Shown one piece after another: positions 43,998-58,263 of a stretch of DNA of 64,000 bases. A program made the position numbers and the translations under genes. Position 1 is the first letter of the stretch, and every line of letters starts with the position of its first letter. The notes below the pieces were generated by a model. The model worked only from the letters and a program-made list of their open reading frames with translations, did no database searches and was not told the DNA's origin. Location of the stretch: positions 35,163 through 99,162 of the IMG/VR virus record IMGVR_UViG_3300043584_000003, one strand, 5' to 3'. Source of the DNA: a virus.

Positions 43998-44600
43998 TTA
44001 GGAAACTGCGCGATCGAGATACGCCTCTTTGAGCTCGTCGTCGAACCGCGCACCGGACGCCAACGCGAGCGCCGACGGTTTCGTGATGAACGCGACCGGC
44101 CTCTGACCGGTGTGCTTTCGCGTCGTCAACGCCTCGACGACCTCGAACGGCGACGCGATCAGATTGTGTCGAATGTACGGAACCTCACCGGGAATCGACG
44201 ACATGCCGGCCTTATAGACGACGTATCGGCCGAGCTTATCGTCCCGTAACGCACGATCGTACATGGCCGCGAGATCGGTCTCTGGCGGTACGTCCGCCGG
44301 ATCGACGTCCAGCTCGCGCATGATCCGAATCTCGAACCAGCGGCAGGCATTGCATCGCTTACCCTGCTCGACGTACGGCCCCGTGTGATCCCAGTGATTG
44401 TCGGTCCAGCTGGACCCGTAGCCGATGAACCGCGCGATGGTGCGGTAGTACTCCAGCTCGAGCTCGTCGGTCGATTCATCGTAGGCGGTCGCGTCGCCTC
44501 GTTGCGTCGGCACGGATACGTCGGTTCGGATCGGCAGCGGAAGAAACCAGCGGCGCACCTGACCGATGTCGCGGTAGTTCGGTAGCTGAAGAGAGATCAT
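43998..44600 (-). CDS. Hypothetical protein (RCNACRWFE)
   Basis: AGGA RBS; 200 aa with phage-like codon use. Confidence 0.6.
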   Translation of the reverse strand: MISLQLPNYRDIGQVRRWFLPLPIRTDVSVPTQRGDATAYDESTDELELEYYRTIARFIGYGSSWTDNHWDHTGPYVEQGKRCNACRWFEIRIMRELDVDPADVPPETDLAAMYDRALRDDKLGRYVVYKAGMSSIPGEVPYIRHNLIASPFEVVEALTTRKHTGQRPVAFITKPSALALASGARFDDELKEAYLDRAVS

Positions 44601-44839
44601 CTCATATTTCCTAACGTCAGTCGGTCAGCGCGCGTCCAGCGTAGACGATGCGCGACCGATCGAGACGTACGCGACGTGACCCGCTGCGTATGCGGACGTC
44701 GCTCGGTCCTCCCCCAGACCGAAAATGTTCATATGGCATCCATTATCGCGTATCCTCGTTCCGTCGTCGGTCCAGTCGACCAGTCTACCGACCGGTGACA
44801 CGATGCTAATGATCTTACACATCATCGGTCGCGGCTCGA

Positions 44840-45193
44840 TCACGTCGACCGTTGCGCGAGGTCGTCGCTGGTTGAAGGCGGTGTTGACGGCGGCGGCTGC
44901 CAGCGCTCGATCAGCTCATGGGCGGGTAGCTGTCCGGTGAATCGCTGACAGTCACAACGAACGTACTCGTAGCCGTTGCGAGATCCATTAATGTCATAGT
45001 GCACACGCTTAACGTACGCGGCGCAGTAGCCATCGTCTTTCTTGTGTAGCGCGTAATCGTGCTCGCAACCGCAGATGGTCGGCGGAACCAGCGGCACGGG
45101 GCGACCGCGTCGGCCGAGCTGAAACGTCAACACGTGCGACGCGACGTAGGCGGCAACGCCAACGCCGATCATCATCGACTCGTACCAGTTCAC
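44840..45193 (-). CDS. Membrane-anchored protein with small Cys/His cluster
   Basis: N-terminal TM; CGCEH...C...CDC. Confidence 0.55.
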   Translation of the reverse strand: MNWYESMMIGVGVAAYVASHVLTFQLGRRGRPVPLVPPTICGCEHDYALHKKDDGYCAAYVKRVHYDINGSRNGYEYVRCDCQRFTGQLPAHELIERWQPPPSTPPSTSDDLAQRST

Positions 45194-45223
45194 GGTAGCC
45201 TGACTTCCATCAGTTACTTCCCA

Positions 45224-45658
45224 CTAATCGTTACTCGGTTGCGTTCGATCCAAGTATGCGGCGTAATCCTCGTTCTCAGGCGCGTTAACGTCGACGGCGT
45301 CGATGACCTCGGTGATCGGTTCATCGTTCGTGCCCGGCAGCGCTCGTGGTTCGATCCATTGTGCGTTGTTGACGTCGAACACGCCGCCGTTGATGTGCTC
45401 ACCGGTTATAGAATCGTGCGTGTCGTGATAGAGCGCGATGGCGCTCAACGCTCGATTACGTACCTCAACGATCGACTGCGCGATGACCTGCAGCTCACCG
45501 ACCAGCTCGGCGACGCGATCCTGCAACGACTCGACCTGGACGGACATGCGATCAACGCGGCGGCTCTGTAACCTCATATGTCGATAGACGAGCGCGGCGA
45601 ACCTCGTCAACGCGCGGTTGCGGCGACGCTCGCTCTTGGTCTGCGGTTCGGTATCCAT
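45224..45658 (-). CDS. Coiled-coil hypothetical protein
   Basis: Heptad-like central segment. Confidence 0.5.
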   Translation of the reverse strand: MDTEPQTKSERRRNRALTRFAALVYRHMRLQSRRVDRMSVQVESLQDRVAELVGELQVIAQSIVEVRNRALSAIALYHDTHDSITGEHINGGVFDVNNAQWIEPRALPGTNDEPITEVIDAVDVNAPENEDYAAYLDRTQPSND

Positions 45659-45669
45659 GACTTGATCTC

Positions 45670-46086
45670 TTATGCGGTATCGGCGTCCTGCCGGATCATC
45701 ACCCAGAACTCGTCAAAGCTCTCCCATCGCTTTCGCATCTGAAGCCAGTCACGCAGCATCTCCTGCTTGAGGATACGGCTCGCGATGTCGTTGCGTACGA
45801 CCTCCTCGCTGGGCTCGTACACGTAGCCGCTCGGTCCGCGAATGGCCTGAAACGCGCGAACGTTATCGATGTTGCCATCACGCTTGATGTAGCTGATCTT
45901 CACCGAGCGAATGAGCTGGTGAGCCTGCTCACGGCGGTACCGTTCGGCTGCCTCGGCGTCGTCCCACGTGAACCGCTGGTGTAACGGATGATCGGTCCCA
46001 CGCGCCTCGTCGAGAACGATCTGAGGTGTTAACTCACCACCGTGTCGTTGCCGGATCTCCATAAGAACGTCTCGTAGCTCTGCCAT
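45670..46086 (-). CDS. Helical accessory protein downstream of the GGY-NN array
   Basis: Likely start ATG 46086 behind GAGGAAAG; ELTPQIVLDEAR...HPLHQRFTWDDAEAAERYRREQAHQLIRSV. Confidence 0.7.
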   Translation of the reverse strand: MAELRDVLMEIRQRHGGELTPQIVLDEARGTDHPLHQRFTWDDAEAAERYRREQAHQLIRSVKISYIKRDGNIDNVRAFQAIRGPSGYVYEPSEEVVRNDIASRILKQEMLRDWLQMRKRWESFDEFWVMIRQDADTA

Positions 46087-46106
46087 CGTTATCTCTCTTT
46101 CCTCGT

Positions 46107-47186
<1,080 letters not shown>

Positions 47187-47222
47187 CGGACCCGGCTCCG
47201 TACCTGCCTCGCCTACCTTGAG

Positions 47223-47915
47223 CTACCGGGCGGCGGCACCGGTGTCGTTGACGACCTGCACGTCGCGAGTCATGTCGATGGCATAGGTACCGCACTCGCC
47301 GCGCTTCTCGGGCCGCCAGTCACCCACGCCGATACCGAGCCCGCCCGCGTCGATCAACGAGAGAACCGAGCTGCGCGAGATACACGAACGAACGAAGGTC
47401 ACCTCGAGTGTCGTGGTCCACTCGGGAAACTCGGGCCGGTAGCGCGTCTCCGAGGAGCTTCCGTACCCGCCGAGCCGTACCACGTCCTCGCGCATACGCG
47501 GCTCGCCGATGATCGGAACGAGCGCCTGCGGGTCTTCCTTGCTGATCTCGCCCTTCATGAAGATGAACTGCCGCAGCTCGGTCATCTTCACGTCCTTGCC
47601 GTAGAACCTGGCGGCGCTCACGGTAGCCGCCTTGAACGCGGTGATCGGAAACCCATAGCCGTCACGCAGCCGGTAGAAGGCGGCCTGGTACTCGGCCTCC
47701 GGGTCACGCGGCGTCTTCGGTGTGCTGATCGACTGCTGCCGGTGGAGCATCTGCAGCTTGGCCTTCTCGCTGAACCTGTGCACGATGAGCGGCGCGGTGC
47801 CGACGATCGGCACGAGCAGCGTCTCCGTGTCGATGCGGCTGATCTCCACCTTGGCCGTCGACTCGTCTCGCGCTGCGGCCGGCTCGGCCTTCGCCTTGGT
47901 CGGATTGGTCGTCAT
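47223..47915 (-). CDS. RAMP/Cas7-like RNA-binding protein
   Basis: beta1 LLVPIVGTAPLIVH, GFPITAFKAA (cf. IPGSSxKG), thumb-like REDVVR...TRYRPEF.EW, C-terminal G-rich loop GGLGIGVGDWRPEKRGECG. Confidence 0.7.
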   Translation of the reverse strand: MTTNPTKAKAEPAAARDESTAKVEISRIDTETLLVPIVGTAPLIVHRFSEKAKLQMLHRQQSISTPKTPRDPEAEYQAAFYRLRDGYGFPITAFKAATVSAARFYGKDVKMTELRQFIFMKGEISKEDPQALVPIIGEPRMREDVVRLGGYGSSSETRYRPEFPEWTTTLEVTFVRSCISRSSVLSLIDAGGLGIGVGDWRPEKRGECGTYAIDMTRDVQVVNDTGAAAR

Positions 47916-47941
47916 ATCGCTAGCTCCTTATACTTGTTTAT

Positions 47942-48484
47942 TCATCGGTCTCGCTGGTCGCGGGCGCTTACCTCGTTGAACCAGGTAGCGACGCGTACGA
48001 CGTCGTCGAACGTCAGCCCGACGCGTGGGTCAACGTAGTGCAGCGTGGTCGGCAGACCGCGCCGTAAACGCTCGTTGAGAAACCGGTCCCGCGCATCCGG
48101 GTGCTCGTCGAAGGCGTCGTCAAACCACGCCACGGTTCGCGTCGCGGCGTAATCCAGCACGGCGGCAAACTTCCAATCAGGATCCGTTTGGTCCCAGTGG
48201 ATCACCGGCAACGGATCAAGGCCGATCAGCGGCGCGATCAGCTCGTTGGCCTGGTCCTCCCAGGTGGTGCACCAGACCAGCTCGGCATGTGTTCGGTCGG
48301 TCAACGCACCGAGCAGATCGCCGTGTCCCGGATGAAGCCAAACACGCAGCGGTCGCTTGGCAATCCAGCCTTCCGGTCGTAGCCGGTACGTCTCGTAGCC
48401 GGACGGTCGACGCGTCGCCTTGGCCCGCCAGGGATTGAACGGTCCGTCGACGTCAAGAAGCAACAGCGGTCGACGATTCGTCAT
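47942..48484 (-). CDS. HAD-family phosphatase (HAD_SAK_2-like, RNA end-healing type)
   Basis: LLLLDVDGPFNP, LVWCTTWE, WFDD. Confidence 0.75.
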   Translation of the reverse strand: MTNRRPLLLLDVDGPFNPWRAKATRRPSGYETYRLRPEGWIAKRPLRVWLHPGHGDLLGALTDRTHAELVWCTTWEDQANELIAPLIGLDPLPVIHWDQTDPDWKFAAVLDYAATRTVAWFDDAFDEHPDARDRFLNERLRRGLPTTLHYVDPRVGLTFDDVVRVATWFNEVSARDQRDR

Positions 48485-48675
48485 GATTCGCTCGTTCCGT
48501 CAAGTAGCTCGTGCAATCGCTCGGCAGCGCGACCGATCGCAGCGTACCGCTGAACGTCACAGTCACTGCACAGCCCGGACGATTCCTGCGACCAACGCGG
48601 GCAGTCACCATACGTATCGTCGTGATCGTGACGCATCTCGGTAAAACCACGACAACGACATTGCCTTGCTGTCAT
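48481..48675 (-). CDS. Small Cys-rich hypothetical protein
   Basis: Likely start 48675; CxC...C...CxxC; ATGA coupling. Confidence 0.45.
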   Translation of the reverse strand: MTARQCRCRGFTEMRHDHDDTYGDCPRWSQESSGLCSDCDVQRYAAIGRAAERLHELLDGTSES

Positions 48676-48940
48676 GATCGACTTACCTCCTGGATCGGAC
48701 AGCTCACGGACGTATCCGCGTACCAGACGTCGTCCCAGACGGCGGCAACGAGGCACGTGGTCACGGCCGGCATGAACAAGCGAGCGCTCGCTATCGCCAC
48801 GTGCGGTGCGACGTGTCCGATATTACGAACGCACGTGTAGTCGTTGGCGTACGCCGGACAATCGGCGCGCTGCTCGGTCACAAACGGATCACTCGGAAAG
48901 ACCTGACCGGCGCGGAACGGCCAGTACGTCGGCGGTCCGG

Positions 48941-48944
<4 letters not shown>
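48672..48944 (-). CDS. Hypothetical protein
   Basis: Coupled on both sides; C...CVRNIGH..PHVA. Confidence 0.5.
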
Positions 48945-49245
<301 letters not shown>

Positions 49246-49249
<4 letters not shown>

Positions 49250-49989
49250 CGATTCACCGCCGTTCGTCCGGGCCCGTCGACGGTCGACGTCGCCGGATCA
49301 TCTAGTAACGCGCCGAACTCGCGCTCGCGTGTCTCGATCAATCGCACGACGTCAGCGCCCGCGACCGGCGCAAAGTCCCACTGATCGACGCCGACGTTCA
49401 GGTTACGCCCGCTGGTCAGCCACGCGTTATGAACGTGCCCGCAGACCACCCAGCGCTTGGTCACCGGCCGCCGATCAACACCGCCCAGCGGACGCGGCCG
49501 GTAGTCAGCAAACCGATCCTCACGATCCGGCTGGGACTCACCGATCGTTGGGAAGTGGCAGAGCTCGACGTGGTTGGACGCGGTATCCGGGACGCCGCGC
49601 ATCAGTCGCACCAGCGTGCCGTATCCGTTGCGGCGGATGTGCGCGCCTGTCGAGATCAGCTCGAACCCGGCGCGGCGGTAGTCAGCTACCCAACCGTCGA
49701 GCTGAACCTTGTTCACGGGATTGTCGCCGTAGCCCTCGAAGCAGCGGTCGTGGTTACCGGCGACCAGGTACTTGTGCCCCTTGAGCCGGCCGATCGTAGC
49801 GAGCGACTCGCGGATCGGACCCATGCAGACGTCGCCGACGAACCAGACCGTGTCCCGCTCACCTACCACGTCCTGGTAGCGCTCGATCAGCGTCCGGTTC
49901 ATCTCGTCGACCGACGCGAACGGTCGCTCGACGAGCTCGATGATCCGCTGGTGTGAAAGATGCCAATCGGCGGTAAGCCATACGGTCAT
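49246..49989 (-). CDS. Calcineurin-like metallophosphoesterase
   Basis: TADWHLSH, VGDV, AGNHD, CHFP, CGHVH. Confidence 0.9.
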
Positions 49990-49991
49990 CG

Positions 49992-50225
49992 TTACCGGCC
50001 TCTCCTACCGATCGTCCGCATGACGGCCGTCGTCAACCCGGCGAGTACGCCGATCGACCACATGATGCACCAGGCGAGGTCGCTCGCAAAGTGCGGCACG
50101 AACACGCCTTGTGACAGGACGTTGCCGAGAAGCATGCCGGCCGGAAACGCGCAGAACACCGCGCTCAACCACGCGCCGGATGGATCGGGTATAAATCGTT
50201 GAGGCGTAGGTGAATCGTTCGTCAC
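49992..50225 (-). CDS. Small two-TM membrane protein
   Basis: Two hydrophobic segments; likely GTG start at 50225. Confidence 0.5.
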   Translation of the reverse strand: MTNDSPTPQRFIPDPSGAWLSAVFCAFPAGMLLGNVLSQGVFVPHFASDLAWCIMWSIGVLAGLTTAVMRTIGRRGR

Positions 50226-50229
50226 GTCG

Positions 50230-50520
50230 CTACTCCTCGTTCTCGTCATCGTCGTCATTGTTAATCGCATCATTCGCGTCATCTTCCTCGGTGGCGAGCC
50301 AGCCCAGCAGCCGGATCGCGGTCGTCACGGTGATACCGCCAAGCTGGTGTTCCAGCTTGTGGATAACCTGCGCGGACGTTCCGATCTTGCGCGCGACCTC
50401 CATCATGGACCAGCCGCGCCGCTGCCGGGCGCTAACCAGCAGCAGCGGCAGCTGGTCAAGCAGCACGATCAGCCGGCGAACGTCGGCCGGTCGAGCGCGC
50501 ATATCGTCGGTTGCGGCCAC
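50230..50520 (-). CDS. XRE-family HTH protein
   Basis: RQRRGWSMMEVARKIGTSAQVIHKLE. Confidence 0.8.
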   Translation of the reverse strand: MAATDDMRARPADVRRLIVLLDQLPLLLVSARQRRGWSMMEVARKIGTSAQVIHKLEHQLGGITVTTAIRLLGWLATEEDDANDAINNDDDDENEE

Positions 50521-50526
50521 TATGCG

Positions 50527-51357
50527 TCACCCGCAGGGTTCGTCGTACGCGGCCGGTGCCGCACCGGTCGCGCGTTGGAGCCGCTCGTGCGTGAGCCGTG
50601 CTTGCTCGTGGTCATACCGGTCGACGTCGGCGACCCAGTCGTCGATCGTCGTCAACAGCGCGTCCTCGAGCTCGTCGCGCCAGTTGAGCGGCTTAACGTC
50701 CCAGTCCTTGATCATTCGGTGAATGATACGAGGCCAGTCGACGGGTAACAGCGCGTAGAGCGGACCGTCGTGACTGTCGTCGTCCGTATCGTGTCCGATC
50801 GTCACGTCAGCGGTACCGGCCGCCGCGCCGCTGGCGTCGATCCGCTGCTCGGCCGCGCGGTGGAACCGTAGCCCGCGGCGGAACGCCTCGTACAGCGCGG
50901 GATCCGGATCCTCGTCATCGGTCGCAACGTCGTAGCCGCGCTCGGCCTCGGCGGCCAGCTGGGCGATCCGCTCCTCGGTCAGCTCGACGCCGCCTGACGT
51001 CATGACCGGCGCGGGGCGACGCCACCGCGACAGCAGCAACTCCATGCGCGCACGAACCGCGTCGGACGGTCGCGTATCGGGCGACTGCGTCGCGGCGTAC
51101 CACAGCAGATCCACCGCGTCGGGCGGCAGCGCGTCGTGCTGGCGATCGAGGCTCTCGAGCCACCGCAGCTTTTCGATGCGCTCGGCCTGTTCCTTGATCA
51201 GCTGCCGGGCCTGCTCGAGCTCGGTTGACGTCGACGACTCAGATCTGGACCCGGGCTCGTGTTCGAACGCGCGCCGCGCGCCGTCGAACAACTCACCGAC
51301 GCCGGTGATCGCACGGTCCATGGCCTGCCGAACGGCGGCCCAGTCGGGGGGCGTCAT
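50527..51357 (-). CDS. Hypothetical protein
   Basis: 276 aa; ATGA coupling. Confidence 0.55.
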   Translation of the reverse strand: MTPPDWAAVRQAMDRAITGVGELFDGARRAFEHEPGSRSESSTSTELEQARQLIKEQAERIEKLRWLESLDRQHDALPPDAVDLLWYAATQSPDTRPSDAVRARMELLLSRWRRPAPVMTSGGVELTEERIAQLAAEAERGYDVATDDEDPDPALYEAFRRGLRFHRAAEQRIDASGAAAGTADVTIGHDTDDDSHDGPLYALLPVDWPRIIHRMIKDWDVKPLNWRDELEDALLTTIDDWVADVDRYDHEQARLTHERLQRATGAAPAAYDEPCG

Positions 51358-51845
51358 TCCGTCACGTCCCGGTGCATCGTCGACTCCTGGTCACCGTCCC
51401 AGTCGTCGGCCTGCGCCTCGAGCACGTCGGCGATCAGCGCGAACGGCACGCGTGAGTCGTTCATCCGCGACAGCGTAGTCACGTTGTGACCGAACACCGT
51501 CTTGTCTTTCGTGCGTACGTCGACGAATCGCGGATCCCCGATGTAGACCCACGGGTCGTTGGTCGTGACGCCGAGCCAGTCCCGCGCCTCACGCGATAGA
51601 TACGAGACCGAGTTGATGCCGGTCCGGCGGTTGATGACATGGTAATCGCCGCGTGCAACGCGAGGCTCCCAGTGGCAGCCGCGCAGATCCTCGACCACGC
51701 CTAGACAGCAGTACGTGCTCGCGCTTGGCCGCAGCCCCTGGTGGCCCTGCTGGTAGCGGCCGGAGCGTAACGCCTCGATCAACGCGCGGCGGTGCTTGCG
51801 AACCTCGTCCTGGGTGTAGACCGGCAGCGGTGTCATGGTCATCAT
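51354..51845 (-). CDS. Hypothetical protein (paralog of 52339-52827)
   Basis: IEALRSGRYQQG..LR....YCCLGV...LSRMND....F..IADVLE. Confidence 0.65.
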   Translation of the reverse strand: MMTMTPLPVYTQDEVRKHRRALIEALRSGRYQQGHQGLRPSASTYCCLGVVEDLRGCHWEPRVARGDYHVINRRTGINSVSYLSREARDWLGVTTNDPWVYIGDPRFVDVRTKDKTVFGHNVTTLSRMNDSRVPFALIADVLEAQADDWDGDQESTMHRDVTE

Positions 51846-52342
51846 CGTTCCTTCTCCTTCTTCTTCTTCTCATCGAGCATCGCCATGATGCGTAGCTCGA
51901 ACGCCTCGAGCCCAGCGCGTAGCCGAGCGTTGTCCTCACGCAGCACGGTCTCGTGCGTGATCACCTGCGCGACCAGCGATTCGAGTCGCGCGACCTGCTG
52001 GTCGCGGCGCGCGGAGTACGACCGCCAGGTGGTCTCGGGCAGCAGCGGCGCGAGTAGGTCCAGCGCGGCGTCGGCCATCAGGAGATAGCTAGCACGTACG
52101 TCGGCGTCATCCTCGTCCTCGACGCCCGGTAGGTCGAGGTCCGGCGTCTCGGCACTGTACAGCGTCTGCGCGACGCGCTCGCGTAGCGGTTTTTCTGGCA
52201 CGTACCACCTCATGGTCTTTTCGATGACCCAGGCGTGGCTGGGTAGCTGTTCGGGCGGTGTTCGGCGCGGAAACGGTGCCGGTATCTGGTTGCCGGGCGC
52301 GTCGCGGTCCAGCAGGCGTCGGTCGTCCGGTGCCACGGTCAT
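51842..52342 (-). CDS. Hypothetical protein
   Basis: Coupled at both ends; coiled-coil C-terminus. Confidence 0.5.
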   Translation of the reverse strand: MTVAPDDRRLLDRDAPGNQIPAPFPRRTPPEQLPSHAWVIEKTMRWYVPEKPLRERVAQTLYSAETPDLDLPGVEDEDDADVRASYLLMADAALDLLAPLLPETTWRSYSARRDQQVARLESLVAQVITHETVLREDNARLRAGLEAFELRIMAMLDEKKKKEKER

Positions 52343-52827
52343 GGTCGGCTTGATCGGCGTCGATCATGCTCGGCGATCGCCCAGTCGTGCGAACCGTCCC
52401 AGTCGTCGCCCTGGTCCTCGATGACGTCCGCGATCTCGGTGAGCGATAGGCGCTCGTCGTCGTTTAACCCGGTCAACGTGCGCACCAGCACCAGCGGCGT
52501 GGAATCACGTTCGCACGACCAGACCACGTAGGGATCGGTCGCGCGAACAAGGATTCCATACCAGGCGCACGCCGCACGAGACAGCAGCGAGTAGTTTTCT
52601 GGCTCATCCTCGGTGGCCCACTCGTTCATTGTTGTTATCGCCGTCGTCGTTTTCCAGCGCGCGCCACGCGCCTTTTCGGCCACACCGAGGCAGCAGAAGC
52701 CGTCGCGTTGCCCCGAGCGATCTCGAAGCCGGCCGTACGCCTGCGGTAGCTTAGAGCGTAGCGCGGTGATCCATTGACGGCGGTGTCTGGCGATCTCCTC
52801 GGGTGTGTACGCGGTCGGTTCAGTCAT
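52339..52827 (-). CDS. Hypothetical protein (paralog of 51354-51845)
   Basis: Likely start 52827; WITALRS.LPQ.YG.LR....FCCLGV...LND...L.EIADVIE. Confidence 0.65.
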   Translation of the reverse strand: MTEPTAYTPEEIARHRRQWITALRSKLPQAYGRLRDRSGQRDGFCCLGVAEKARGARWKTTTAITTMNEWATEDEPENYSLLSRAACAWYGILVRATDPYVVWSCERDSTPLVLVRTLTGLNDDERLSLTEIADVIEDQGDDWDGSHDWAIAEHDRRRSSRP

Positions 52828-52858
52828 GATCGTTCCTTCCTTCGTCTGGTGGTCACGC

Positions 52859-53083
52859 TCATCGCCGTGCATCGCGACGCGGACCGCAGGCGCGCTCCAA
52901 CGCCGTGCCCGTACAGCGGCCACCGACGTACCGGATGAGTTGATCCGCCGCGCAGCTAGGATTCACGCAGCGCCAGCGGTGCAACGCGTTCGGCGTCAGG
53001 CCGTCGTACGCCAGCGAATGCCCGCGCATCTTGGCCTCGAGCCGAACGTCGTCCTGAAGCTGGGGCTCACGGGTCGTCGCCAC
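52859..53083 (-). CDS. Small Cys/His-containing hypothetical protein
   Basis: RGH...HRWRCVNPSC...C...C. Confidence 0.45.
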   Translation of the reverse strand: MATTREPQLQDDVRLEAKMRGHSLAYDGLTPNALHRWRCVNPSCAADQLIRYVGGRCTGTALERACGPRRDARR

Positions 53084-53594
53084 GACTCGCCTCCTCGAAC
53101 CGGTCTTGATCTCGACGCAGCACGCGCAGGTCCTGCTCGGCGTCGGATAGTTGGATCATCAGCTCGGCGATCCGACTCTCGCACGACGCCATCTTGCGCT
53201 CGTACAGCCGAACGAAGTCCTCGCGCGTCGCCTTGACGTCAGCGATCTTGCCGTAGTTGGCGGCGTCGGCACGCACGGCGAACCGGTAGACGAAACCGAC
53301 GATCGTCATTACCAGACCGAACACGGTGAGAAACCCAGACGTAACCGTAAACGTATCGAGCGGGACGACGGCGCCGTCCGCCATGCTCAGTCCGTCGGCG
53401 GTGCCTAGTAGGAGGACACCGAGCGTCGCGAGCACGGCGTACGACCGACGTTGACCGGCGTACCTTGCCGCAGCGGCGCGGTACACCAACAGCTTCGATT
53501 CATGCTGGAACAGCACGTCGCGTTCGGCATGCAGCTCGACGCGTAGCTCGTCAACGACGACGACGGCGCGTTCCAACTTCTTACTCGACGTCAT
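53067..53594 (-). CDS. Two-TM membrane protein with coiled coils
   Basis: Likely start 53594; similar to 53581-54045 (L.G.DG.V.P.D...). Confidence 0.55.
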   Translation of the reverse strand: MTSSKKLERAVVVVDELRVELHAERDVLFQHESKLLVYRAAAARYAGQRRSYAVLATLGVLLLGTADGLSMADGAVVPLDTFTVTSGFLTVFGLVMTIVGFVYRFAVRADAANYGKIADVKATREDFVRLYERKMASCESRIAELMIQLSDAEQDLRVLRRDQDRFEEASRGDDP

Positions 53595-54045
53595 CGAGCA
53601 CCCCCACGCGGGACGCGGCGGTCCAGGCCACCGTGACGGCGTCCAACGCGCAACGTACCTCAAGTTTGGCGTCGTCGTAGACGTCGTAACGCGTCTGATA
53701 CACCGTGCCGTACGCGGCACGTTGATACTCGGCATCCGTGAAGAACAACACGCAAAAGAAGACGAAGCCGGTGATGGTAAACGCGGGACCAAGCACCCAG
53801 CAGGCGATGCTAAGGCCCATCATGCTGTCCGGCGGAAACACGGTGCCGTCGAGGCCGGTCAGCGTTCCCGCGCACAGCATGAGGCCGATACCGGCGGCGA
53901 CGCACAGCGTGCTCGCGCGTCGTTGCCGTCGATGACGAAGCCAGACGTTGAGTGCTCGGTCGCGGACGCGCTCGGCGTCGCGTAGCGCGACGCGCGCCGC
54001 GTGGAGTCGCCGTCGCAGCTCGGTCGCCTGCTGGTCGGTCGTCAC
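53581..54045 (-). CDS. Two-TM membrane protein
   Basis: GGAGG RBS; two hydrophobic segments. Confidence 0.6.
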   Translation of the reverse strand: MTTDQQATELRRRLHAARVALRDAERVRDRALNVWLRHRRQRRASTLCVAAGIGLMLCAGTLTGLDGTVFPPDSMMGLSIACWVLGPAFTITGFVFFCVLFFTDAEYQRAAYGTVYQTRYDVYDDAKLEVRCALDAVTVAWTAASRVGVLDDVE

Positions 54046-54126
54046 GATTGGACCTCCGATCGTGTGATCGTTCGTTCCGTCGCGCGTATCGTATCGACCG
54101 ATAGCACGGTCATAGTGTTGATTAAC

Positions 54127-54483
54127 CTAGCCCGCTGTCGACCGCCGTGATCGATGCGCACGCCAGCGTCGCTGCCAGGCCGCGAGGCGTTCGTAGCCCA
54201 ACGTGGTCAGCTTGACGGGTGAACCAGACGCCGAGATCGCGCTGGTCGGGCCCACCTGTGCGGATATCAGGCCGCCGCGCCACAGGTCCATGACGGTGCG
54301 AGCCTCGCTGGACGCGGCGGCGCTCGGCGACAGCGCGTGATGCTCCGAGTCGCGGAGCGTACGCAGCACGCGGTAGCGCGTTAGGACCCCGCGCGCTCGC
54401 TCGCGTGTGATACGGAACGCGCCGGTCGATGCTAGGAGCAACGTCTCATACCTCGTCGATGTGTATGTCACATCGGTTGGCAT
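54127..54483 (-). CDS. Hypothetical protein (winged-helix-like)
   Basis: GAGGAGG RBS; ends ...LTTLGYERLAAW. Confidence 0.55.
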   Translation of the reverse strand: MPTDVTYTSTRYETLLLASTGAFRITRERARGVLTRYRVLRTLRDSEHHALSPSAAASSEARTVMDLWRGGLISAQVGPTSAISASGSPVKLTTLGYERLAAWQRRWRAHRSRRSTAG

Positions 54484-54511
54484 CCTAGGTCCTACCTCCT
54501 CGTAGTACCCC

Positions 54512-54847
54512 CTACCCCTGCTTACCCTACCGCGCCTTGCCTTGCCGTACCTCGCCCCGCCTCGACTGCCTTACCACGCCAAGCCTAGCCATGCCTAGCC
54601 ATGCCATGCCTGCCCAGCCTTGACCCGCCCCACCAGACCAGACCACGCCCAGCCGGACCTGCCTTACCCCGCCAAACCGCGCCCTGCCGGACCACACCTA
54701 GACACGCCGCGCCGCGCCGCACCAAGCCTGCCTCGCCGAACCCTGCCATGCCGTCCACGCCCTACCAAACCACGGCTGAACCAAGCCTGCCGGCCCTGCC
54801 GTGCCTAGCCATGCCACGCCGCAACTTACCACGACTAAGCCGGTGCC
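54512..54847 (-). repeat. GGY-NN pentamer array 2 (orphan)
   Basis: Same (NN-RCC)n grammar with TGCC block breaks; about 6 blocks. Confidence 0.85.
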
Positions 54848-54850
54848 ACG

Positions 54851-55054
54851 TCACACACCCGGTCGCCCAGCACGATCCCAGCGCAACGCCGCCGCGATCC
54901 GCTCAACGTCCTCCGACGCCACGCCAAGACGCGCTAGCTCGGCAAACGCCTCGATAACTATCTCGCGCATGTACTCGGTAGGAAGCACGTTCAACGTCCG
55001 CGCGACGGCGCGTAACACGTCCTCGCCGATACGCAGGTCGATCGGCTCGCTCAT
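54851..55054 (-). CDS. Small DNA-binding-like protein (possible ribbon-helix-helix)
   Basis: IDLRIGEDVLRAVARTLNVLPTEYMREIV. Confidence 0.5.
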   Translation of the reverse strand: MSEPIDLRIGEDVLRAVARTLNVLPTEYMREIVIEAFAELARLGVASEDVERIAAALRWDRAGRPGV

Positions 55055-55063
55055 ACGTCACCA

Positions 55064-55318
55064 TCACCGTTCTTGGTTCCAGGAGGCGGCCAGCGTGGTC
55101 AGAAACGCCGGCACGACGTCGTCGCGGTTAAACGGGTCGAGGTCGGTACAGGCGGCGACGTCGCCGGGCGCGTGCTTGATGAACCGATCATCGTGCCACA
55201 GCGTGTGAAAGAACGCCTGACCTGGGCGAAGCTCGGGGTGCGTCACCATCATGACAGCGGCGGCACGCAGATAGCGGGTAAACCGCGTAGGTGGCTGATT
55301 CACGACTAGTCCTTCCAT
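55064..55318 (-). CDS. Hypothetical protein
   Basis: HPELRPGQAFFHTL...DPF. Confidence 0.55.
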   Translation of the reverse strand: MEGLVVNQPPTRFTRYLRAAAVMMVTHPELRPGQAFFHTLWHDDRFIKHAPGDVAACTDLDPFNRDDVVPAFLTTLAASWNQER

Positions 55319-55587
55319 CGCCCGTTAGAGAGCTGTCGGTTCCCGACGAGCCAGTTCTCGAGTCGGCTGGCGACCAGCTCGAACAACACGCCGTTCCAGT
55401 CATCCTCGAGCCCGTCGACGGCGGCGAGCGCGTGCGTTAACACGAGGACGGCGACCTGTTCGAGCGTCCAGTCGCTCCCGTCGGCAAACGCGACGTCCGT
55501 GCGTTCGTCGGCGTCCAGCCGATTCAACAAATCGTCACGTAGTGCGTCAGCGAGCCGCGTCACACCGTCTGACGAGGTCAGGTTCAC
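55306..55587 (-). CDS. Hypothetical protein
   Basis: AGGA RBS; operon position. Confidence 0.45.
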   Translation of the reverse strand: MNLTSSDGVTRLADALRDDLLNRLDADERTDVAFADGSDWTLEQVAVLVLTHALAAVDGLEDDWNGVLFELVASRLENWLVGNRQLSNGRWKD

Positions 55588-55614
55588 ATTCGTTCCTACC
55601 TATCTACTTCTTAG

Positions 55615-56094
55615 CTAGCTCGGTGGAGCCTCACCGGTGGGAAACTTTTCGGGGCACAGCGTCACGCGGGCGACCACGATGGTATCCAGCGCCAGCACGC
55701 CGGGCATACGCTCCTGCGTGGTGAGCGTCTGCGGCGTCGTCAGCGGATCGCAGGCGACGACCAACGCGTGATACGCGCGCTTGTCCGGCCAGGCGGACGC
55801 CGGGTAGTCCGGCGCCATAGCACGCAGCTGCGCCAGCGCCTCACGCTCGAGGTAGTTGTGCCGATCCGAGGATGCTGACGAGGCCGTAGCGGACGGCGCA
55901 GCGGACGGTACGGCTACGCGGCGCGCGGTGCCGGTCGAGGACGCTGAGGCCGGCGACGCGCCGGTTTGACCGCTATCGCGAACGACGACGCGCACGACCG
56001 CGAACGTCAACGCGACGAGTACGGCCACGCCTAGCCAGATCGCGGCGAACGTTGCCCAGCGGCCGAGCCGGAACTCGGCACCAAAGATACGCAT
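55615..56094 (-). CDS. Membrane-anchored protein with Ser/Ala-rich linker
   Basis: Likely start 56094 behind GGAGG; one TM. Confidence 0.55.
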   Translation of the reverse strand: MRIFGAEFRLGRWATFAAIWLGVAVLVALTFAVVRVVVRDSGQTGASPASASSTGTARRVAVPSAAPSATASSASSDRHNYLEREALAQLRAMAPDYPASAWPDKRAYHALVVACDPLTTPQTLTTQERMPGVLALDTIVVARVTLCPEKFPTGEAPPS

Positions 56095-56098
56095 ATCG

Positions 56099-56416
56099 CT
56101 ACCTCCCCTCGGTACAGCGCGGATACTCGTCACCGACGACGCACAGCCCGCGCGTCAGCTCCCGCCGTGCGGTATGACCATCCGGGTAGCGGATCGTCAG
56201 CTGCACGATCGTCCTGCCGGGCGTCGGCGTTAGCGACGTCACGCGGCCTTGGACGACCGGATCGGAACGCGGACACGCGGCTAGTAAAACCAGCAGAACG
56301 ACGACCAACGCGCCCCAGGTAACAAGGCGATACGTTCGCTCGGTAAGCGACGGAGAACTCGCGCGCCGCAGCTCGGCACGCACGGCGTCGCGCAGCACGC
56401 GGTCACGGGCGGACAT
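56099..56416 (-). CDS. Putative lipoprotein
   Basis: Likely start 56416 behind GAGGAGG; LLAAC lipobox. Confidence 0.5.
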   Translation of the reverse strand: MSARDRVLRDAVRAELRRASSPSLTERTYRLVTWGALVVVLLVLLAACPRSDPVVQGRVTSLTPTPGRTIVQLTIRYPDGHTARRELTRGLCVVGDEYPRCTEGR

Positions 56417-56659
56417 GATGCCTCCTCGGTCGGAACAAGTAGAACGGAACGCGAGCCGGCGGCGGGAGATCGCGCTCGTTCGCGTGAAACCGCCGATCCA
56501 CGTCCCGGTCTTGGCGGAACGCCGGATCATCGCGCTACGAAACCAAAGAAGGTAATGATCCAGCGTCCCGGTTTAGCGGAAACGTCGATGCCCGGAGGAG
56601 CCCCGCAGACCCGATCTTGCGGTAGATCCCAGCGGGAGCTCGCACCGACGTTCCCGGTC

Positions 56660-56929
56660 CTAGATGCGGTAGGACCCGTTGCGCGTCGCCCGCGTGGCGT
56701 ACTCGGCCAGCGCGCGCCGGAGCGCGTCACCGGAGCCGGTGAGCTTCACGCGGCGCGCCTTGTTGGTCTCGGGCTTGGCCTCGCGCAGCTCGTAGGCGAC
56801 GCCCATCTGGTGGGCGCCCTCCTGCAGGTCGGCCTCGGCGCCCTCGTAGGGCACGATGGCCGACCAGCCGGCGCCGTCGTAGCGCAGGCGGGCCTCGAAG
56901 ACGAAGCGGGTGGCGGTGGGAGTAGTCAC
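56660..56929 (-). CDS. Hypothetical protein
   Basis: AGGAG RBS. Confidence 0.55.
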   Translation of the reverse strand: MTTPTATRFVFEARLRYDGAGWSAIVPYEGAEADLQEGAHQMGVAYELREAKPETNKARRVKLTGSGDALRRALAEYATRATRNGSYRI

Positions 56930-57055
56930 TGATGTGTCTCCTGGTTCTCTTGATTCGTTCGATCGTTGTGTCGATAGCTCCGGATCTTGCTACGAACCGG
57001 ACCCGGCGGTTTTCGTTGCGCGTTCAGACTAGCGACCGGTAGCACGGTTATCGTG

Positions 57056-57240
57056 TTAGCTTTGCTTCCCTTCGTCGGCCGTCCCGACGGCGTTTACCAC
57101 GGTGCATGCAGCGAACCAGTAGCCACCGCCTTCGTCGTCGAAGATGCCGCCGTCACGACGAATTTGCGCGACGGTGCTTCGTGCCACCTCGGCGTCATCG
57201 AACGCGAGCACGACGATCTGCGGCGAATGTTGAAATGGGA
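57056..57240 (-). pseudogene. Start-less duplicate of the N-terminal module of 58339-58920
   Basis: Reads IVVLAFDDAEVARSTVAQIRRDGGIFDDEGGGYWFAACTVV vs YVVLSFVDADAAAHTVEHVRRDGGIFDDDGGGVWCVSCTVV; no start codon seen before the upstream in-frame TGA. Confidence 0.55.
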
Positions 57241-57330
57241 CGCGGCCGCCGACTCTCGGACGAGCTAACGGGCCGCGCCGGCGCCCACTAGGCTGGCTTG
57301 TTCATCACGCTTCAGCTCAAGATTCGCCGC

Positions 57331-58263
57331 TTAGCCAAATGCGCTGAGCAGCCGGCTTCCATCCGCGCGGAATTGAACCACTGGATCGCGTAGGGCGAGG
57401 TCGGTGGACATCTCCGGGAGTTGGGCGAGCAGTCGGTCGCCGCAGTCGGCGACGGTGTCCAGCACCAGAGTCCGGAACGCCGGCCTCGTCGCGGGTGCCA
57501 CGTCCAGCTGGACGACCACGACCGCTGGGCTGACCAGCGGCTCGCCGTTGCGGGACGTCACCGCGATGCGGACCGGCACCTTCGAATCCTTGGCGATCTC
57601 GGCGAGCGCGGTGCGGCATATCTCCGTGTACACCTTCGCCGGATGGTGGAACGGGTTCTTGCCGGCCACCGCCTCCGCGATTCCGCGCCGTTCGGACGAG
57701 CTGACCCCGAGTGGGCCGTTTCCACGACCCACCGCACCTTGATCGCCTTTGTCGAGCGAGCTGCCGAAGGCCGTGAGATAGGCAGTCCCCGTGTCGTCCT
57801 TCGTGTTGACGTGGCAGTCGACGTCGAAATGCTCCGCGTAGCTGTCCGCGATGTCACCCACGACCGAGCGGACCTTGTCCTTTGCCGCGAAGTAGGCGGC
57901 CTTGGTTGGCACCTCGCGCGCCTTGACCGGCACGCACAGCGTCACGTCGGCTTCCCTGTTGCGGCGAACCGCGAGGACTTTGACATCGGTGCCAAAATCG
58001 GGGTTCTGCTCCCGGAACGGCCCGGTCAGCATCCGCTCGACCTCGATCACCAGTCGCTCGAGCGGCGTGAGGGGTCCTTCGACGCCCAGGCAGGTGGTGT
58101 CGGCCGACTCCCACCGGCCGGGGTCGGCCGGCCGGATCAGGTCGGCGGACGGCGGCCGGTACATCTCTCGCCCATGGTCGTCGGTGAGGCGGTCGTTGTT
58201 GATCACCTCAGGCGTCAGGTGTTCGACCAGTCCCGCAAGGTCGGCCTGCTCCAGCACGGACAC
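57331..58263 (-). pseudogene. N-terminally truncated archaeal-type S-adenosylmethionine synthetase
   Basis: DTTCLGVEGPLTPLE, GTDVKVLAVR, YLTAFGSSLDKGDQGAVGRGN, AVAGKNP.HH.AKVY; lacks the N-terminal ERKGxGHPD region (~100 aa). Confidence 0.7.

Follow-up and report, generated by a model that had tools for sequence, protein, structure and literature searches.

The 64,000-nucleotide stretch analysed here (the window) is part of a complete 100.9-kb phage record from IMG/VR with a G+C content of 61.6%. It was found to carry, besides a guide array lying beside a vipr gene (array 1), a second and distant array of GGYNN pentamers (array 2). On the evidence of its sequence, array 2 can be assigned with high confidence to the vrRNA arrays of the VIPR kind. 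It is probably a working distal cassette of vrRNA genes which would be loaded in trans by the single Vipr of this phage, a reading that draws on the sequence and on analogy with published systems. This reading follows from the intact central blocks of array 2, from block junctions identical in grammar to those of array 1, from evidence that the system of this phage is active and from the published precedent for use in trans. The features concerned are listed in Table 1.

Table 1. Features of the two GGYNN arrays and of their surroundings (positions are those of the window).
Feature	Position	Strand	Remarks
vap-like accessory gene, 138 aa	45670..46086	-	phrog_15946; behind array 1
Array 1	46110..47215	-	19 blocks of 8–14 units; 176 full units, 91.5% GGY-conforming
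Array-1 guide with natural target	46284..46352	-	head scaffolding gene motif KTFTQA(D/E)L(D/E)RII
vipr, 230 aa	47223..47915	-	sole Vipr-clade ORF in the genome; predicted RAMP fold
Downstream ORF, 118 aa	54127..54483	-	no family; no likeness to Vipr or vap
Junction with GAGGAGG ribosome-binding site for the downstream ORF	54484..54509	-	
Last block, g8	54510..54566	-	first units and subsequent ACGAGGA resemble last block of array 1
Guide g7	54567..54610	-	8 units and terminal GGCA; all GGY-conforming; NN AT-rich
Guide g6	54611..54659	-	9 units and terminal GGCA
Guide g5	54660..54728	-	13 units and terminal GGCA
Degenerate 5' third of array 2	54729..54850	-	10-unit block with 3 non-GGY units, then short register-slipped fragments
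Array 2, distal staggered vrRNA array	54510..54850	-	~70 GGYNN units in all
Upstream ORF, 67 aa	54851..55054	-	stop abuts array 2

VIPR is a CRISPR-related, phage-borne and RNA-guided silencer of DNA which was first described in 2026 and of which seven types have been published (10.64898/2026.04.26.720920). Its protein, Vipr, is a stand-alone RAMP of ~20 kDa which polymerises on vrRNAs of alternating GGY and NN, each repeat taking up one protomer. Pairing occurs between the NN dinucleotides and DNA that is read as NNxNNx, the skipped base usually being a codon wobble position, and binding silences genes of rival phages and satellites (10.64898/2026.04.26.720920 and companions). The mechanism has been studied by cryo-EM, with PDB entry 36pp being the Vipr of SUSP1, in which residues H17, R138, D177, W178 and R179 hold the GGY (10.64898/2026.04.26.720927). 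The legend of fig. S18 in the first description refers to 'staggered arrays', in which vrRNAs have an overlap of 1 nt (10.64898/2026.04.26.720920). Solo or orphan vrRNAs, found in satellites and in VIPR-null phages of Enterobacteriaceae, use a Vipr encoded elsewhere; the roles described for them are to load, redirect or titrate the Vipr of a rival, or to silence rival VIPR loci (10.64898/2026.10.15.759431).

The two tracts were the only ones identified by period-5 autocorrelation in the whole 100.9-kb genome (46099–47159 and 54499–54859 of the window). In the window there are 30 occurrences of (GGYNN)x7GGY, all of them on the minus strand and within these two tracts, compared with 0 in 100 dinucleotide-preserving shuffles. 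The second GGY-NN array claimed in an earlier note on this DNA, which had been made from the sequence alone, is therefore real. In both tracts it is the minus strand that is composed of GGYNN pentamers, the strand that is also sense for the small genes around them. Among clean 5-mers, position 3 was C or T in 112 of 118 units of array 1 and in 32 of 34 units of array 2, with positions 4 and 5 being free in both arrays. The NN composition is best fitted by codon positions 1 and 2, by 0.3–0.6 bit per unit, which is mostly a G+C effect and weak evidence. No match was obtained in an Rfam search of positions 44000–57000 at E ≤ 1, and hence no ribozyme or Rfam family lies between the blocks at that threshold.

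The stretch around array 2 was also recovered from other data. A Logan contig, an independent assembly of a run which is perhaps from the source sample, covers positions 51000–58000 with 0 differences, and fragments identical to parts of this stretch were present in three other soil studies. Among the DNA contigs compared, no variants of the array were found in other soils.

Array 2 has five blocks of at least six full units, in which 44 of 51 units (86%) conform to GGY; block boundaries were taken from a register (Viterbi) parse. The blocks g5, g6 and g7 each close with a 4-nt GGCA followed by GG, and 28 of their 30 units jointly conform. The NN dinucleotides of g5 read TT GC GC GC GT TA GT CC AG GC TT GG AA. 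Block g8 (54566–54510) is followed by ...ACGAGGAGG and then by the ATG at 54483. The earlier note had described about six blocks with TGCC breaks, the same grammar and sense strand as in array 1, a start just after a stop codon and an end before a ribosome-binding site, and this description was borne out on each point. The blocks were recovered by the register parse with their GGCA ends, while the unit grammar, the staggering of the blocks, the terminal GGCA and the minus strand are common to both arrays. The array starts 3 nt past the stop of the ORF at 54851–55054(-) and ends ~26 nt upstream of the ATG, which GAGGAGG precedes.

No sigma-70-like promoter or intrinsic terminator was found flanking array 2. 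It lies on the same strand as vipr at a distance of 6.6 kb (54510 to 47915), with many small ORFs in between, and a comparison by hhalign of three larger ORFs near the array with the Vipr profile revealed no likeness. The 118-aa downstream ORF had no relatives in the phage collection or in IMG/VR, and for this reason no syntenic array was found in which fixed GGY and varying NN could be compared.

In array 1, GGCA ends 14 of the 19 blocks, with GGCT, GGCC or GGCG at the end of the other five. Block lengths are of 5k-1 nt, which means that the register moves by one base at each junction; in the arrays of relatives every block ends in GGCAG, the last G of which is the first G of the next block. 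The genome holds ~24 blocks of at least six units, 19 of them in array 1 and five in array 2. At 46344–46431 array 1 contains near-identical duplicated blocks of 39 nt (two copies with 94% identity according to TRF), and arrays apparently grow by duplication of blocks followed by divergence of NN. About ten units over both arrays have GTC in place of GGY (GTCTA, GTCAA, GTCGT and others), for example at 54690–54694, 54619–54623 and 46294–46298. These GTC units seem to be read, as the NN of a GTCGT unit in the guide with a known target still matches that target.

Between the TAG stop of vipr and array 1 there is a perfect hexamer repeat, (TTCTGG)x11.3, on the minus strand of positions 47119–47186. 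Read in frame through the TAG it would give ...GTEPGPG(SG)n, and it is absent from the closest vipr relative (locus L128). It may be a slippage product, a read-through linker or a 6-nt off-register spacer. Read-through of array 1 itself in the vipr frame was rejected, as seven further stops follow the TAG within the array.

The earlier note had also stated that the two arrays have similar 3' ends and that their blocks differ. An alignment of the ends upheld the first statement in part: the motif GGCAGTC[A/G]AGGC[A/G]GGG opens the last block of both arrays and ACGAGGA stands before the start codon in both, although much of the 80% column identity between the ends is only the common GG phase. 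The second statement held throughout, with no guide being shared between array 2 and array 1, NN matches not above a shuffled null and a DNA identity of 68–73%. The NN of array 2 were likewise shared with none of ~130 other loci with VIPR arrays.

The product of the gene at 47223–47915 matched PDB entry 36pp (SUSP1 Vipr) with E=9.8e-5 by phmmer, and a profile of its family of 108 homologues did so with E=7.8e-13 over nearly the full length (residues 22–199 against 4–188). The motifs YRP and GVGDWRP are identical in the two proteins. Residues H46, R160, D199, W200 and R201 align with the SUSP1 residues H17, R138, D177, W178 and R179; none of the 108 homologues departs from R160 or R201, and none of the 12 closest from H46 or W200, while D199 is D or E among homologues (GVG[D/E]WRP). 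An AF2 model built from the alignment had a pLDDT of 92.6. Nearly all of its top 50 Foldseek matches in PDB were CRISPR RAMP or Cas7-family subunits of effector complexes (E from 4e-6), including Csm3, Cmr4, Cmr6, Cmr1 and backbone subunits of type VII and type I-A. Judged by sequence and predicted fold, the gene thus encodes a true Vipr, and the RAMP gene on which the earlier note had relied is genuine. The family comprises 3295 clusters at 50% identity. A search of genome contigs with an alignment of 12 sequences found relatives in prophages of Actinomycetota, among them Microbacterium, Streptomyces, Nocardia and Nonomuraea.

The product of 45670–46086 has 47% identity (E=3e-38) to that of a prophage gene which immediately follows vipr on a contig of 834 kb. 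A vap-like homologue was found near vipr, within ~0.5 kb downstream, in this prophage and in 12 of 12 actinobacterial genome loci, and from the latter the gene is regarded as the accessory gene of the clade. Directly upstream of vipr, the gene at 47942–48484 has a HAD_SAK_2 domain (E=3.5e-6), the HAD domain found in RNA repair proteins of the 'Swiss Army Knife' kind; a Metallophos gene occupies this place in the closest vipr relative. HAD_SAK_2 was the only Pfam match near the arrays, with neither cas1/cas2 nor another cas gene among the matches.

The connection between such tracts and the RAMP gene was examined in a sample drawn from IMG/VR by DNA pattern alone (at least 120 loci, 39–71% G+C). 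Among the matches listed, a Vipr-clade ORF was present in 83 of 120 loci, and in all 83 the nearest array was on the vipr strand, at a distance of 38 nt in the median and of 863 nt at most. The tie between tracts and RAMP gene that had been proposed is thus supported. Ten other whole phage records with VIPR, among them those of Mycobacterium phage Donkeykong and Gordonia phages Pipp and ODay, have every array of at least 7–8 units in one locus beside vipr, and a distal array was found in 0 of the 10. The position of array 2 is atypical in this respect, since arrays lie within 0.9 kb of vipr in these whole records and in the 83 loci: a vrRNA locus on the same strand flanks vipr and vap in the case of array 1, which is not true of array 2, on the same strand and 6.6 kb away. 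With solo vrRNAs having been published, an array flanking vipr is by analogy best regarded as the typical architecture rather than an absolute requirement.

Of the orphan arrays which the earlier note had suggested should be looked for in related genomes, none distal to vipr was found in the 10 whole records with VIPR. Five other whole records had short tracts and no Vipr-clade ORF anywhere. More generally, 37 of 120 loci with GGYNN runs had no Vipr-clade ORF nearby among the matches listed (for example L014, L023, L027, L031 and L063). The vipr-less records with short tracts may hold solo vrRNAs or other Vipr types.

Cultured phages are among the carriers of the same VIPR clade. In Gordonia phage Pipp (MN234179) the array (locus L001, 3750–3965) is annotated as gp43, between vipr (gp42) and the vap-like gene (gp44), and in Mycobacterium phage Donkeykong (NC_051648) the array (locus L210, 4919–5264) is annotated as gp48, with vipr being gp49 and the vap-like gene gp50; GenBank labels both arrays 'hypothetical protein'. 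In Gordonia phage ODay the array (locus L002, 3809–3951) is unannotated and vipr is gp19. Phages UmaThurman and Ecliptus also carry a vipr homologue.

Targets were sought by converting guides into NNx patterns, with exact seeds only being used in large collections. For the array-1 guide at 46352–46284, the first ten units (20 specified bases) gave 20 exact matches in IMG/VR, where ~0.1 would be expected for 20 bases as scaled from the 28 matches of a 16-base pattern; four other guide patterns of 18–20 bases gave 0 matches. Twelve of the 20 matches extend over the next two units of the guide, and the best agree at 25 of 26 informative positions, compared with a maximum of 18 for shuffled guides. 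All 20 sites fall in one gene family, that of the head scaffolding proteins (DUF4355/Gp46, PHROG 'head scaffolding protein'), on the opposite strand and at the motif (K)TFTQA(D/E)L(D/E)RII. In these targets the NN pairs lie on codon positions 1 and 2 and the skipped base on the wobble position, and the wobble bases vary between phages of 43–72% G+C. The targets agreeing at 25 of 26 positions belong to the cultured mycobacteriophages Rando14, Omnicron, Larva and their kin (Cluster-K-like). As this guide matches the scaffolding gene under the published rule of skipping 1 nt, the system looks active, and the match suggests that VIPR is in use in this phage.

No DUF4355 scaffolding gene was found in the phage's own genome, and none of the 24 guides exceeded the shuffled-guide maximum there, so that no self-target was detected. 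When the 24 guides were compared with five whole genomes of targeted phages and with 1.25 Mb of VIPR loci, the guide at 46352–46284 was the only one above the null. The scaffolding target hints at a host of mycobacterial type, and at broad-spectrum guides directed against conserved motifs.

The gapped search for targets of single blocks, which had likewise been proposed, yielded no convincing target for array 2 with exact seeds of g5, g6 and g8. These were the array-2 guides covered in the large collections, g7 being left out because its 16 AT-rich bases give an excess of chance matches. For g5, exact searches of IMG/VR with units 5–13 and with units 1–10 gave 0 matches, as did its 12 units in the JGI metagenomes, and allowing up to 3 mismatches yielded 0 matches both in the genomes of five Cluster-K-like phages and in those of 401 Mycobacteriales. 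The nine units of g6 had 0 exact matches in IMG/VR and 26 in metagenomes, about the level of chance and without a recurrent gene or a wobble-divergent homologous set. An 8-unit seed of g8 had 28 matches in IMG/VR, also about the level of chance and without a recurrent gene. The array-1 guide at 46283–46225 had 0 exact matches.

We infer the transcription, processing, trans-loading and targets of array 2 as follows. The array would be transcribed within a long minus-strand operon of small genes and its transcript cut at the staggered junctions between GGCA and G, giving vrRNAs of ~40–70 nt. The single Vipr (47223–47915) would polymerise in trans on each vrRNA, with one protomer per GGYNN unit, burying GGY and presenting the NN dinucleotides. 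The resulting filament would bind double-stranded DNA read as NNxNNx..., with the skipped base usually at the codon wobble position, and its binding would silence the target; a gene from a competing phage is the likeliest candidate. Points against a working cassette are the lower GGY conformity of array 2 (86% against 91.5% in array 1), its degenerate 5' third, the absence of a convincing target in the scans and the atypical distal position.

It is also conceivable that array 2 is a decaying relic, a remnant of a VIPR locus, either former or foreign, which recombination left in the early operon and which is maybe transcribed, without useful guides. Such a history would be in keeping with the degenerate 5' third, with its register slips and non-GGY units, with the lack of a target for its guides in exact-seed scans, with flanking genes that are ORFans without relatives, as expected in a mosaic region, and with the usual placing of arrays within 0.9 kb of vipr. 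However, the three central blocks retain 28 of 30 conforming units and a terminal GGCA junction exactly as in array 1, and a 340-nt tract with period-5 GG and free NN would soon lose its phase without selection. The missing targets are themselves weak evidence, as only exact seeds were used and only one of the two array-1 guides tried by exact scan had a match. A relic is thus considered unlikely. The probability is lower again, and small, that array 2 serves as a counter-measure whose vrRNAs load, redirect or titrate the Vipr of a rival or silence rival VIPR loci. Solo vrRNAs with such roles have been published (10.64898/2026.10.15.759431), and array 2 is uncoupled from vipr in a different part of the operon, but in 1.25 Mb of VIPR loci, with ~100 vipr genes or arrays, no match of an array-2 guide exceeded those of shuffled guides, and the phage's own Vipr would load the array-2 RNAs anyway.

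Readings unconnected with guide RNA fare worse. The earlier note had favoured a functional RNA grammar over local slippage, and the agreement of the pentamer grammar with that of VIPR vrRNAs sustains this view. It is very improbable that array 2 arose by pentanucleotide slippage and has no function, or that it is a structural element (G-quadruplex, R-loop, Rho-loading site) unrelated to the RAMP gene. Local tandem duplications do occur inside the arrays, and an RNA in which GG recurs at intervals of 5 nt would be rich in G. Against these readings, NN varies freely beside the fixed GG and Y, block lengths are defined (5k-1 nt) and the terminal unit is constant. Among the matches listed, 83 of the 120 independent viral loci combine this grammar with vipr, and a guide of the sister array reads a natural target by the VIPR rule. 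A G-quadruplex or R-loop, a C-rich antisense RNA that loads Rho, a decoy for RNase E and an RNA bound by a protein in the manner of TRAP had each been entertained and were dropped after the VIPR match. A protein-coding function, as a repeat protein or a read-through extension, is scarcely credible. Spurious ORFs of 60–200 aa run through both arrays and GenBank calls such arrays CDSs in Pipp (gp43) and Donkeykong (gp48), whereas a 5-nt period is incompatible with a reading frame and no family matches were obtained.

A working distal cassette is accordingly preferred for array 2, and the system to which it would belong resembles published VIPR in several respects. Both are carried by phages and have an accessory gene and a small RAMP which stands alone and in which the residues that bind GGY are conserved. 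Both also have same-strand guide arrays of GGY/NN pentamers without self-targets, and in both a guide (here one of array 1) matches an essential gene of a rival phage with skipping of the wobble base. The type II exemplars (SUSP1 and P. fulva) have 1–4 vrRNAs, each with a structured 3' tail. In contrast, the arrays of this phage have no invariant structured 3' tail (pseudoknot), and their blocks are contiguous and separated by the 4-nt GGCA only; they are long and staggered, with ~24 blocks of at least six units, and the host clade is actinobacterial. Blocks of 5k-1 nt which end in GGCA, with a G then opening the next block, are like the published staggered arrays as far as the figure legend describes these, and it is from the wording of that legend that we infer identity with the published example.

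Array 2 is like the solo vrRNAs in being a vrRNA locus without an adjacent vipr. The published solos consist of 1–2 vrRNAs in vipr-less elements, whereas array 2 carries multiple guides with the phage's own vipr 6.6 kb away, and no anti-VIPR or decoy target was detected for it in 1.25 Mb of VIPR loci. There is a further likeness to class 1 CRISPR systems with Cas7 backbones, in the RAMP filament on a guide RNA with periodically flipped bases, in arrays of many guides and in targets that are rival mobile elements. Unlike in CRISPR, guide bases alternate with fixed ones inside 5-nt units, and the reading of targets leaves gaps. No repeat-spacer units (direct repeats of ~23–50 nt between unique spacers of similar length) were found, tandem-repeat and register analyses showing 5-nt units and their multiples only.

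VIPR has already been published, solo vrRNAs included, and the modest twist here is a multi-guide distal array in an actinophage that has VIPR of its own. With this finding VIPR is also documented in an actinophage of soil, 101 kb in size, whose set of guides is unusually large (~24 blocks in two arrays). The scaffolding motif, read over phages of 43–72% G+C, cleanly illustrates how the wobble-skipping code is used in nature beyond the enterobacteria. A distance of kilobases can separate vipr from an array of several guides, and pipelines which search only beside the RAMP gene miss such arrays. As cultured phages carry the same VIPR clade, trans-loading of distal arrays could be tested at the bench in M. 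smegmatis. It is tentatively suggested, as a possibility at most, that vrRNA arrays are modular cassettes which move and act independently of vipr even within genomes that have VIPR. On this view array 2 would have entered another part of the early operon, by acquisition or by relocation, and its guides, evolving separately, would be loaded in trans by the one Vipr of the phage. If this is true, staggered guide cassettes would be exchangeable 'ammunition' among actinophages.
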